Below are positions 1,784-43,504 of a DNA stretch of 64,000 nt, piece by piece. The notes below the pieces were generated by a model. The model saw nothing but the letters and a program-made list of their open reading frames with translations. It searched no databases and had not been told where the DNA came from. The stretch covers positions 94,904-158,903 of the forward strand of contig JAHQWG010000025.1 in NCBI GenBank assembly GCA_029856045.1, read 5' to 3'. Position 1 is the first letter of the stretch, and the number at the start of each line of letters is the position of its first letter. This DNA comes from Promethearchaeia archaeon. GTDB lineage: Archaea > Asgardarchaeota > Lokiarchaeia > Sigyniarchaeales > SOKP01. The position numbers were made by a program, and so were the translations under genes.

Positions 1784-1882
1784 AAAGATTAAATAATTGC
1801 AAAAACATAATCAATTTTATTTGAATAGTTTAATTTAACGATTTTTAATAAAGAAAAGATCTTTAGCTAGAGGGGACAAAAG

Positions 1883-3070
1883 ATAGTAGATATTAGCAAT
1901 ATTAAAAATATTGTTGTGGTTGGAGCTGGTATTATGGGTCTCGGTATCACTCAATCTGCATTATGGGGTGGTTTTGAGAAGGTTGTCTTGAATGATATCA
2001 AAAAGGAATTTATTGATAACGGAATTAAAAAGATTGAAGAGGGGTTGAGAAAATCCGAATCTAAAGGAAAATTAGGGGAAGGGATTACTACTGATGCACT
2101 TATGCCAAATCTGATTAAAGAAGTGGATCTCGTAAAAGCTATTGCAGACGCTGATTTTATATTTGAAGTAGTTACTGAGGATTTGAAAATTAAACAAGAA
2201 GTATATAAAAAATTAGGAGAAAATTCTCCTGAACATACTATTTTCGCATCAAATACCTCAACTATAAAAATTACAGAATTGGGAGAAGCTTCAAATCGCC
2301 CTGAACAAGTAATAGGGATGCACTTTTTCCTACCTCCATATCGTCAAAGAGGGATAGAAATAATGAAAGGTGAAAAAACTTCTGATGAAACTATGGAAAT
2401 TGGTGTGGCTGTTGGCCAAAAATTACCATGTCTTGATGGGAAAAGAGTGATTGCTCAACTTGAAAAAGAAAGTCCAGGATTTATTGTAAATAGGCTACTT
2501 TTATCCGCCCAAATTTATTTTAATTGGATTCTTGATCAAACAGAAGAAAATAAGATTTCATTGGAACAAATTGATGCAGATGCAGGTAATTTAGTGTTAA
2601 TTGGTCCATGTGAATTATCTGATTATCTAGGATTAGACACTTTTTATAATAGTATGAAATCATTTGAAACAATACTTTCTCCAGATTTTGCTCCTGGAGA
2701 AGTTCTCACAAAATTGGTCTCAGAGGGACATTTTGGTAAAAAAACCGGGAAAGGCTTCTATGATTGGATTGAAGGAAAACCCAAAATAGATAAATCAAAA
2801 AAGGCAGGATTTTTTAATCCAGAAGTGATGATGGCTATTCAATTAAATGAGGGGTGTAGGCTTTTAGAAGAGGGAGTCGTTAAGGGATACAAGATTATTG
2901 ATGATATTATGTTAAGTGGTACTGGCATGCCTGGTCCATTCGGCGCTGGTAAAAGAAATTATGAAAAATGGTCTAATATGTTAAATAAATTAGCAACCCA
3001 GATTGGAAAAGAATATCTTAGACCTTGTAAATTATTAAAATCTGGAAATTTCATTGAAATGAGAAAATGA
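1883..3070 (+). CDS. 3-hydroxyacyl-CoA dehydrogenase (paralog 3); probable ATA start at 1883 (ORF track starts at GTG 1916)
   Basis: GAGIMG, SNTST, GMHFF, PGFIVNR; upstream codons ATA GTA GAT ATT AGC AAT ATT AAA match the MVDISNIK start of paralog 2. Confidence 0.9.
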   Translation: MVDISNIKNIVVVGAGIMGLGITQSALWGGFEKVVLNDIKKEFIDNGIKKIEEGLRKSESKGKLGEGITTDALMPNLIKEVDLVKAIADADFIFEVVTEDLKIKQEVYKKLGENSPEHTIFASNTSTIKITELGEASNRPEQVIGMHFFLPPYRQRGIEIMKGEKTSDETMEIGVAVGQKLPCLDGKRVIAQLEKESPGFIVNRLLLSAQIYFNWILDQTEENKISLEQIDADAGNLVLIGPCELSDYLGLDTFYNSMKSFETILSPDFAPGEVLTKLVSEGHFGKKTGKGFYDWIEGKPKIDKSKKAGFFNPEVMMAIQLNEGCRLLEEGVVKGYKIIDDIMLSGTGMPGPFGAGKRNYEKWSNMLNKLATQIGKEYLRPCKLLKSGNFIEMRK

Positions 3071-3119
3071 GTAGCTAGAGAATCCAAATTATTTAGAGAG
3101 AAATTTCTAATGGAATTTA

Positions 3120-41162: not shown

Positions 41163-42749
41163 ATGAGTAAGAAAAAAGAAGAGCCAATGAAAAATTTAAA
41201 AAATAACGAAAATGAAGATAAAGAAAAAGAAATGGAGTCCAGAAAGGAGGAAGAAGAAAGCGAAAAACCAATTGTAGTTAAAGCAGAAGCTTATAAAACG
41301 ATTATATTATATGCAAGCAGGTATGCTAACCAAGCAATACCTCCAGCTGAATGGAAAGAGATCTATGGAATTTTAATTGGGCATATTACTGATGCATTGG
41401 TTATTGTCGAAAAAGCTGAGGCTCTAACATTTGGGCATAGCACCGATGTTCAATTAGATGAAAGACATTATGGTTTTATTGAACAAATTGAAAATAAATT
41501 ATATGAAGAAAACCAAGGTCGTTTTATTGTGGGTTGGTTTCATAGTCATCCCGGTTTAGGACTATTTTATTCATATATTGATTTAATAAATCACATCGGC
41601 TTTCAAGGGAAAAATAAGGATTCTTGTGGATTAGTTTTTGATCATACTTTGTTGGGAAAAAAAAAGAGAGAAAAAGATGCTAATTCAGAACATATGATTA
41701 CTAAATATGACACTGGGTTTGAAATATATCGAATGAATAATGTAAATATGGATATCAATGATCCAGAATTTGACAATAACTATCATAAAGTAGATTATTT
41801 TATTGATGGATTAAATAAATTCTTTTTTGCGAATGTGATGACTGAGCTATCTGCTTTAGCTTCAAGTGGAAAACCATTACAATCAGCATATGGAGAAAAT
41901 GTTTCTAGTTATACACCGCAATTCACTCATTATCCAGAAAAAGTCCATGATGATTTTAATAAAGAATCAGAAGTTAAGGGTAAAAGTATTTCTCAAGAAA
42001 CTATGCCTGAATTAATCGAGATACCTTTAGAGATAGACGGAGAATTTGATGTGAAAGATATTTTTCGTGACGCCTCTGAAATTATGAAGTCAGAGAAACA
42101 TGATAACACTAAAAAATTACAAATGGCTGATGAATTATTTTTTGAGGGGAATCAAGCATTTAGACAAAAAAATTCATTTGAAGGTGTTGAAAAATATAAA
42201 AAAGGTTTGAAAATTCTTAAAGAAATAAATGAAATTGATAAGGTAATGGAAAATTTAAGTAAATTAAGTGAGAAATGTTTACATAACAACCATTATCCAT
42301 TAGCTGAACAAAATTCTGAAGAATTATTCAAGATTGCTGAATCAAATGGTTCTTTATTTTTTATGGGCGGAGCGAAATATATCATTGGATTTATTAAAAC
42401 AATAAGAAATGAAATAAAGGAAGGATTAGAAGACATTCAACAAGCTGCTATATTCTATGAAAATACTCTGGATTTTTATGGAACAGGTTTATGCAATCAA
42501 AAAATTGCAACAATTTATTCTACTCATCTAAAAGATATTGATAGGGCTTCCCTATTTTTTCTTGAAGCACTAAAAAATTTTAATAAAGCTCTTGATAAGA
42601 TACATCCATTAAGAATAACAGTTTGGGATAGTCCAAAACAAATTAAGGAAAGAATTAATAATCTTAAAGAAACTATTAAAAAAAATCTAAATCAGATAAC
42701 CGACCAAAATGTTAAAAGTAAAATTGAATCAGAACTAAAAAATTTCTAA
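41163..42749 (+). CDS. MPN+/JAMM metalloprotease domain fused to C-terminal TPR/SNAP-like repeats
   Basis: EIYGILIG plus VGWFHSHPGLGLFYSYID (complete E-HxHx7SxxD); helical repeats in the C-terminal half. Confidence 0.85.
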   Translation: MSKKKEEPMKNLKNNENEDKEKEMESRKEEEESEKPIVVKAEAYKTIILYASRYANQAIPPAEWKEIYGILIGHITDALVIVEKAEALTFGHSTDVQLDERHYGFIEQIENKLYEENQGRFIVGWFHSHPGLGLFYSYIDLINHIGFQGKNKDSCGLVFDHTLLGKKKREKDANSEHMITKYDTGFEIYRMNNVNMDINDPEFDNNYHKVDYFIDGLNKFFFANVMTELSALASSGKPLQSAYGENVSSYTPQFTHYPEKVHDDFNKESEVKGKSISQETMPELIEIPLEIDGEFDVKDIFRDASEIMKSEKHDNTKKLQMADELFFEGNQAFRQKNSFEGVEKYKKGLKILKEINEIDKVMENLSKLSEKCLHNNHYPLAEQNSEELFKIAESNGSLFFMGGAKYIIGFIKTIRNEIKEGLEDIQQAAIFYENTLDFYGTGLCNQKIATIYSTHLKDIDRASLFFLEALKNFNKALDKIHPLRITVWDSPKQIKERINNLKETIKKNLNQITDQNVKSKIESELKNF

Positions 42750-42862
42750 TAATTATTTTATCAGAAATTCATTTTTCATTTAAAAAAAATTAAATTTAAT
42801 GGTTAATTGTATTAATGTAAAGTATTTCTTAATTTAAATAAACTAATTTTTTGTGATTTGAA

Positions 42863-43504
42863 ATTCCTAGAAGAAAAGCTAAAATAAAGTTTAAGAGAAA
42901 GATCGCTTGTATCCACCTTGAACCGGCAGGAGATGTGTCTAATAGCTTGCAACCACTTTGTATTTGTTCAACAAGAGAATTAGTGTTAGGTTCTCATGGC
43001 TCTTCGGGTGCATATGTATGTCAGGTATGCGAATATTATGAACCGAATTCAAATATAACAATAAATGAAGTATATAAAAAAAGCAAAAAGATGGCTGAGA
43101 AAAAAGTTCCGATAGTAAAAGAAGTAGAACTTAAAGATTTAGAAGCTGAATTATTAGAAGATATTGATTTGGATGTAAGTGAATTTGAAGAGGAGGAGGA
43201 GGTGGCGACTGAAATTAAATATAAAAAACGCTCAAAAGGAACTTCAAAAGTAAGTAAAAAAGAATTTAAAGAACTTACATCAGAGTGCCCTTATTGTGGC
43301 GAATTTTTTGAAGATCTTTCTGCTCATAAGGCCATTTGTGAATTTGCTCCTTCTGAAAGAGGGATAAAAGCATTAAGAGGAAGAAAACCCATACCTCCAA
43401 CTGAAAAACCAAAAGATGAACAGAAAGGAGAAGTGTGTCCTTATTGTGGGAAAACTTTTTTGAGATTAAGCAGGCATAAATGTAAAAAAGCTCCAAAGAA
43501 GTAA
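42863..43504 (+). CDS. Zinc-finger protein with basic N-terminus and acidic tract; probable ATT start at 42863 (track GTG 42935)
   Basis: CQVC, CPYC-x9-H-x3-C, CPYC-x9-HKC; EFEEEEE tract. Confidence 0.75.
   Translation: MPRRKAKIKFKRKIACIHLEPAGDVSNSLQPLCICSTRELVLGSHGSSGAYVCQVCEYYEPNSNITINEVYKKSKKMAEKKVPIVKEVELKDLEAELLEDIDLDVSEFEEEEEVATEIKYKKRSKGTSKVSKKEFKELTSECPYCGEFFEDLSAHKAICEFAPSERGIKALRGRKPIPPTEKPKDEQKGEVCPYCGKTFLRLSRHKCKKAPKK

Follow-up and report, generated by a model that had tools for sequence, protein, structure and literature searches.

The present analysis concerns the start codons of genes in a 64,000-nucleotide stretch of the genome of an uncultured Promethearchaeia archaeon, a Loki-type member of the Asgard archaea (the window; genome G000, contig C25, positions 94904-158903). 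Seven genes of the window, and at least 50-60 genes genome-wide, most likely start at ATA, ATT, ATC or CTG, 5-7 bases behind a ribosome-binding site, as judged from sequence comparisons. That these near-cognate codons behind a Shine-Dalgarno (SD) sequence are genuine translation starts is, in our view, very probable. Routine initiation at SD-positioned AUA, AUU, AUC and CUG codons had been proposed earlier from the letters of the window (the original prediction), and the proposal is now supported by orthologue mapping, by an enrichment specific for frame and spacing, by coding-type extensions, and by Pfam domain boundaries.

Shine-Dalgarno sequences and geometry of the start sites

Genome G000 is a metagenome assembly of 3.34 Mb in 55 contigs, with 29.4% G+C. 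The 3′ end of its 16S rRNA reads ...GGATCACCTCCT, and for this reason GGTGA is taken as a genuine SD core; the full SD deduced from this end is AGGAGGTGATC. SD-led genes are a minority, with a few hundred 5-nt SD matches among the 2005 open reading frames (ORFs) that have an early ATG, in agreement with the rarity of SD sequences described for Lokiarchaea (PMC12993045). In SD-led ATG ORFs the distance between the A of GGTGA and the start codon, as aligned spacing, is most often 5-9 nt. Canonical SD-led starts include far more TTG (67) than GTG (18), and ATA and ATT starts each appear commoner than GTG starts in the SD-led group.

When the sequence context was re-read, the predicted near-cognate codons, SD-like motifs and spacings were confirmed exactly at all seven sites (Table 1), and the canonical starts at 25494, 23276 and 7932, which serve as comparators, showed the predicted geometry as well. 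The seven SDs sit within the spacing of canonical starts, three of them with cores of only 4 nt, and none of the downstream canonical codons of these genes has an SD. Leaderless initiation does not fit, as an SD lies 5-7 nt upstream at every one of the seven sites. The TTG start of the comparator gene at 7207-7932 (minus strand) reads GTG in contigs of three runs (A>C on the plus strand at 7932), representing a start-codon polymorphism between strains.

An upstream in-frame stop had been said to exclude any more distal canonical start in five genes; the idea holds, and the count rises to six of the seven, in which no ATG, GTG or TTG occurs between the near-cognate codon and an in-frame stop 3-36 nt upstream. 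For three of those six, GGTGA itself supplies the stop, as its TGA. The 4184 site does have an in-frame GTG, 9 nt upstream, but this GTG belongs to the SD, and in orthologues an in-frame TGA excludes that codon.

Comparison with orthologous genes

Orthologues of each window gene were taken from 20-30 related genomes, and the DNA upstream of the first aligned residue was read. As anticipated for true starts, the identical codon is ATG, GTG or TTG in relatives for all seven genes. In every case conservation begins at the near-cognate codon, and upstream of it there is a stop or unconserved sequence. The aligned position holds start-capable codons only (ATG, GTG, TTG, ATA, ATT, ATC and CTG), and is therefore unlike the evolution of an internal isoleucine; across genera, the near-cognates swap among themselves (ATT/ATC/ATA).

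Pfam domains begin upstream of the first canonical start in two genes, encoding the 3-hydroxyacyl-CoA dehydrogenase and the hydantoinase/oxoprolinase A, and because of these domain boundaries neither gene can start at its first canonical codon. The first GTG of the dehydrogenase is residue 12 and would cut the β1 strand of the Rossmann GxGxxG motif. The codon at 1883 is ATA in G001, ATG in the same-genus genome G004 (95% identical), and the first codon of ATG-V-D-I-S in other genera. This gene belongs to three tandem 3-hydroxyacyl-CoA dehydrogenase paralogues with 55-58% mutual identity (contig C25, 94229-97970, that is, window positions 1-3070 plus upstream sequence), a triplet also found in G001 and G004.

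The first ATG of the hydantoinase is residue 61, the Met inside the conserved DTGGT-M motif. The SD, the ATA and the extension of about 50 amino acids are kept in G001 and G004, and orthologues of other genera have TTG or ATG 12-20 codons before AIALDTGGT, with AGGTGA-6-TTG in G016. The extension is Lys/Glu-rich (21013-21165) and was seen only in this genus (G000, G001 and G004), 12-20 residues standing in its place in other genera. The predicted N-terminal mis-annotation is borne out here, the public hydantoinase call being a shortened form of 693 amino acids.

Three genes keep a near-cognate start far beyond the genus. The Arf-like GTPase has a conserved N-terminus, I-L-R-Q-V-Y, and at the 4184 codon the genus has ATT, while at least eight genera of the family place ATT, ATC or ATA 5-7 nt after (A)GGTGA(T). 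The TGA of the SD is often in frame, and two genomes of two other families (G026 and G020) have ATG at the identical codon. In G001, a copy of this GTPase (L257; G001:C74:8072-9132) carries in-frame TGA and TAA codons inside the match, being either a pseudogene or the product of assembly errors. The codon at 10486 is ATC in the same genus, ATT in five genera (I-S-I-P-x-S), and ATG in paralogues and in G026. For the zinc-ribbon protein, whose N-terminus I-P-R-R-K is conserved, ATT is found in the same genus, nine relatives present ATT or ATA behind GTGAT at spacings of 5-8, and the identical codon is ATG in G006, G011 and G008.

GGTGA-6-ATA at 16480 is present in all four genomes of the genus, and in other genera the aligned M-K-K-I-K begins with ATG or GTG. 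For 17905, the aligned codon is ATG in G019, G022, G026 and G010, G011 has AGGTGA-7-CTG with no canonical alternative, and the downstream TTG is lost in the same-genus G004.

Table 1. Probable near-cognate starts, SD sequences and canonical comparators in the window
Feature	Position	Strand	Observations
3-hydroxyacyl-CoA dehydrogenase	1883..3070	+	Start ATA (GGGGA-6-ATA); Pfam 3HCDH_N from residue 10
SD-like GAGGGGA	1870..1876	+	6 nt before ATA start 1883; sequence context
Arf/Roc-like small GTPase with N-terminal domain	3120..4184	-	Start ATT (GGTGT-5-ATT); Pfam Arf/Roc/Ras residues 124-256
SD GGGTGT	4190..4195	-	5 nt before ATT start 4184; orthologues (A)GGTGA(T), spacing 5-7
Membrane/hexapeptide-repeat protein	8810..10486	-	Start ATC (AGTGA-7-ATC); in-frame TAA immediately upstream
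SD-like AGTGA	10494..10498	-	7 nt before ATC start 10486; sequence context
Low-molecular-weight phosphotyrosine phosphatase	16480..16977	+	Start ATA (GGTGA-6-ATA); Pfam LMWPc
SD GGTGA	16469..16473	+	6 nt before ATA start 16480; kept in 4/4 genomes of the genus
OMP-decarboxylase/HUMPS-family gene	17905..18582	+	Start CTG (GGGGA-7-CTG); Pfam OMPdecase
SD-like GAGGGGGA	17890..17897	+	7 nt before CTG start 17905; sequence context
Hydantoinase/oxoprolinase A	21010..23271	+	Start ATA (GGTGA-6-ATA); Pfam Hydant_A_N from residue 53
SD GGGTGA	20998..21003	+	6 nt before ATA start 21010; TGA is an in-frame stop; kept in G001 and G004
Zinc-ribbon protein	42863..43504	+	Start ATT (TGTGA-6-ATT); N-terminus I-P-R-R-K conserved
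SD-like TGTGAT	42852..42857	+	6 nt before ATT start 42863; sequence context
Canonical comparator GGAGGTGA-6-ATG	25480..25496	+	Sequence context
Canonical comparator GGTGT-6-TTG	7930..7943	-	TTG is GTG in other strains

Support for the bases at the start codons

The near-cognate codons could in principle have been made out of ATG by sequencing or assembly errors in this metagenome-assembled genome, which comes in 55 contigs. The same codons recur, however, in three other assemblies of the genus and in contigs of independent metagenome runs, and those of three genes are shared by many other genera. At 10486, 16480, 17905 and 21010 the window agrees with contigs assembled from runs of separate studies and years (marine sediment, 2016 and 2021; sediment, 2019). 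Among the listed runs in which the stretch occurs, none is recorded as RNA. A contig of run X1 has 0 differences from the window over 8132-10800, the full list of differences of the X1 contig over 16416-21500 has none on a start codon, and in the 16480 region the X1 and X9 contigs are identical to the window. At 1883 and 4184 the bases are supported by the other assemblies, the differences of the run contigs there being not all listed. As independent assemblies and runs agree, sequencing error was rejected as the cause of the near-cognate codons, and the chance that it accounts for them is negligible.

Genome-wide enrichment of near-cognate codons

The codon behind the SD was tabulated in 2807 non-overlapping stop-to-stop ORFs of at least 100 codons from G000, with all 5-nt SD matches close to ORF 5′ boundaries included. 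An SD with no in-frame canonical codon at spacings 3-12 was considered an orphan. At orphan SDs the in-frame codon was ATA, ATT or ATC in 42 of 73 cases at spacing 6 and in 30 of 102 at spacing 5, as the original prediction would lead one to expect, against a background of about 12.6% at control in-frame spacings (9-15% each) and about 6-7% off frame. Pooling spacings 5-7 gave 94/335 versus 215/1712 (Fisher p = 1.7e-11). There was no enrichment of these codons at spacings 3, 9 or 12, and the in-frame TGA of GGTGA is thus not the source of the signal.

Among the 61 sense codons, the four highest in enrichment were ATA (31 observed versus 7.2 expected), ATT (33 versus 11), CTG (3 versus 0.4) and ATC (8 versus 3.9), the same codons that had been named from the window. 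The excess corresponds to about 54 genes with 5-nt SDs, and to about 64 with 4-nt cores, an analysis too noisy for refining the gene count, versus 354 canonical SD-led starts; this is about 2% of the ORFs and about 13% of the SD-led ORFs. SD length did not differ between near-cognate and canonical starts. The enrichment is confined to spacings 5-6, whereas canonical starts reach spacing 9. ACG was also over-represented in frame at spacings 5-7 from orphan SDs (24 versus 8.9 expected with 4-nt cores; 4 versus 1.4 with 5-nt SDs), and may be a further, rarer start codon in this genome.

Codon usage was compared for candidates in which 10 or more codons precede the first canonical start, stop codons being ignored. 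The 58 segments from the ATA, ATT or ATC codon to the first canonical start scored 0.142, close to the 0.175 of true N-termini after SD-led ATG starts and far from the -0.098 of open non-coding leaders (p = 2e-6). The extension segments have coding-type codon usage, indistinguishable from that of true N-termini. Six random candidates were also followed elsewhere in G000: in four, other genera show ATG, GTG or TTG at exactly that codon, with one of the four switching from ATT to ATA within the genus; another has homologues starting within a few residues of the candidate codon; and for the last, the start could be either a GTG or an upstream ATC preceded by a strong SD.

Initiator tRNA and initiation factors

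ARAGORN identified one initiator tRNA-Met gene, with an A1:U72 pair, three G-C pairs in the anticodon stem and the anticodon CAT. The gene lies at G000:C27:220557-220656 (minus strand) and its anticodon loop is interrupted by an intron of about 21 nt. No second initiator tRNA was obtained by regular-expression search or by BLAST search for paralogues, in a tRNA set that is incomplete (25-34 genes by ARAGORN and Rfam). It is probable that many tRNA genes are rich in introns or absent from the assembly. A tRNA-SeC is among the ARAGORN calls in this genome.

Relaxed start-codon discrimination by aIF1 or aIF2, as the original prediction had implied, is possible but unsupported. The aIF1 protein matches that of M. 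jannaschii over its whole length (E = 7e-31), with no obvious oddity, and its alignment with aIF1 proteins of solved structure is normal. Its ORF (C27:190727-191116) contains an in-frame GTG four codons before an ATA, neither with a good SD, and a start at either codon gives a normal N-terminus relative to M. jannaschii aIF1. As a candidate for an infC-like weak-start gene, the aIF1 gene, with its usable GTG and an ATA that lacks a good SD, is uninformative on the mechanism.

Alternative explanations

Some points weigh against the near-cognate codons as genuine starts. The reading is built on sequence evidence, and the genome-wide test was run on stop-to-stop ORFs rather than on a curated gene set. 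At 4184, a start at the in-frame GTG within the SD is formally conceivable. For the genes at 16480 and 17905, the canonical GTG or TTG found 4-6 codons downstream would leave the Pfam domain intact, so that the evidence for these two starts is limited to orthologue alignment and the SD. Also, a 400-kb pool of sequence from five further genera of the family gave 5/29 versus 15/147, not significant at low power, and a second, intron-containing initiator tRNA may have been missed, since tRNA detection is incomplete. As an alternative, the genes could start at the first downstream ATG, GTG or TTG, as the public gene calls take them, with the open leader and the SD-isoleucine geometry being a coincidence in an AT-rich genome in which Ile codons are common (about 13% of in-frame codons). 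Such an account is hard to reconcile with the loss of conserved domain residues that it would bring to two genes, with amino-acid conservation that begins exactly at the near-cognate codon, where relatives have ATG, and with the lack of an SD before any downstream canonical codon. Neither would it predict an enrichment restricted to the correct frame and to spacings 5-6, nor coding codon usage in the extensions, and we regard it as improbable.

Another possibility is that the starts are real and are decoded by a specialised component, such as a modified C34 on the initiator tRNA, a missed second initiator with an intron, or an altered aIF1, aIF2 or rRNA P site that lowers stringency across the lineage. 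The share of SD-led genes involved, about 13%, is far above the handful per genome reported in S. aureus (PMC13009471), and both the conservation of near-cognate starts across genera and the small number of tRNA genes detected would be in keeping with this possibility. The initiator tRNA that was found, on the other hand, is canonical and single-copy, aIF1 aligns in full length with its M. jannaschii counterpart, and no sequence feature requires a special factor; this explanation is thus unlikely, although somewhat less so than downstream initiation. The simplest reading is that ordinary initiator methionyl-tRNA (Met-tRNAi) acts on a mismatched P-site codon held by the SD duplex, by analogy with bacteria.

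Proposed mechanism

In initiation by ordinary Met-tRNAi, the SD, with its GGUGA core paired to the 16S rRNA 3′ end ...GAUCACCUCC, would hold the small subunit so that the codon 5-6 nt downstream (up to 7) is placed in the P site. Met-tRNAi, with its CAU anticodon, would presumably then be accepted despite a mismatch at the third position (AUA, AUU and AUC) or at the first (CUG). By analogy with bacteria, near-cognate starts probably work at a fraction of the efficiency of AUG, and would provide low set-points of translation. Mutation pressure from G to A or T in a genome of 29% G+C may keep turning ATG into near-cognates, which the SD-led geometry would allow to be tolerated. The near-cognate starts that are conserved across many genera suggest, because of this conservation, that selection acts at those genes.

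Distribution among related lineages

The original prediction attributed this mode of initiation to the lineage. The signal is strong in this genome, and in three genes the conserved ATA, ATT and ATC starts recur in many genera of the family. In sister-family genomes the frame-and-spacing statistic was modest (20/115 versus 60/608, p = 0.023, at low power), and a wider breadth is something that we would only infer. A genome of the order with 54% G+C gave no significant signal, and the Acinetobacter control was not significant (3/46 versus 18/238), both at low power. A pattern scan with the 16S 3′ end, intended for a low-GC archaeal control, returned mostly bacterial matches.

Comparison with known systems

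Near-cognate starts behind an SD are known from bacteria, as AUU in infC and pcnB of E. coli and, in S. aureus, infC, ccpN and citZ (AUA) and cvfC1 (AUU); in S. aureus reporters such starts give about 10-30% of the output of AUG, attenuating translation (PMC13009471). The genes described here resemble these cases in having AUA or AUU at optimal spacing behind a strong SD, and in the conservation of the weak codon among relatives. They differ in number, with an excess of 54-64 or more genes instead of about four IF3-checked genes per genome. They also belong to an archaeon with aIF1, aIF1A and aIF2, and have GGUGA and not GGAGG as SD core.

The start set of NCBI translation table 11 comprises ATG, GTG, TTG, CTG, ATT, ATC and ATA. 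The table thus lists exactly the codons seen here; it only permits them, and is silent on their frequency or lineage. In contrast to that set, ATG, GTG and TTG are the only starts accepted by common gene finders and in the public calls for this genome. In ribosome profiling of Haloferax volcanii, about 30% of the alternative initiation sites identified with harringtonine were at near-cognate codons, which were set aside as possible false positives (PMC7261190). Those sites are mostly alternative or internal, in a largely leaderless and GC-rich organism, whereas here intact genes would have an SD-led near-cognate codon as their one conserved start.

Eukaryotes initiate at non-AUG codons (CUG, ACG, AUU and others) under the stringency control of eIF1 and eIF5. 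The likeness lies in the presumed use of initiator tRNA on near-cognate codons and in a homologous fidelity factor (eIF1 and aIF1). In eukaryotes, however, the codon is chosen by scanning and Kozak context, with CUG usually the best near-cognate, while here it would be chosen by the SD, and AUA and AUU, with third-position mismatches, dominate. No report of ATA, ATT or ATC starts in Asgard archaea was found in the literature, among open-access papers. In mechanism these starts belong to a known kind, that of infC and pcnB in bacteria and of ccpN in S. aureus; what is new is the scale, about 2% of genes and 13% of SD-led genes, with conservation across genera.

Significance for Asgard archaea

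Gene finders limited to ATG, GTG and TTG would cut short, or overlook, the N-terminal part of a few per cent of the proteins of Asgard archaea, as in the public hydantoinase call, which is left without the conserved DxGGT motif. Among the affected proteins are eukaryote-signature proteins, whose N-termini are relevant for function and for structure prediction. A eukaryote-like aIF1/aIF1A/aIF2 system would thus be using third-position near-cognates as the only start of intact, conserved genes, at a frequency far above that documented in bacteria and with a tight requirement for SD spacing. These genes provide a natural set of mRNAs for testing the fidelity of start codons in archaea and its relation to the eIF1-controlled stringency of eukaryotes.

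A broader view, which we hold as a doubtful but arguable possibility, is that stringency has been lowered across the family. AUA, AUU and AUC, together with CUG and perhaps ACG, would then be a selected tier of weak starts that sets protein dosage, including that of eukaryote-signature genes such as the Arf-like GTPases, and the cause would be a change in aIF1, aIF2, the P site or the modification of the initiator tRNA, and not mere compensation by the SD. If this is true, Asgard archaea would be a natural model for the tolerance of eukaryote-style near-cognate initiation.

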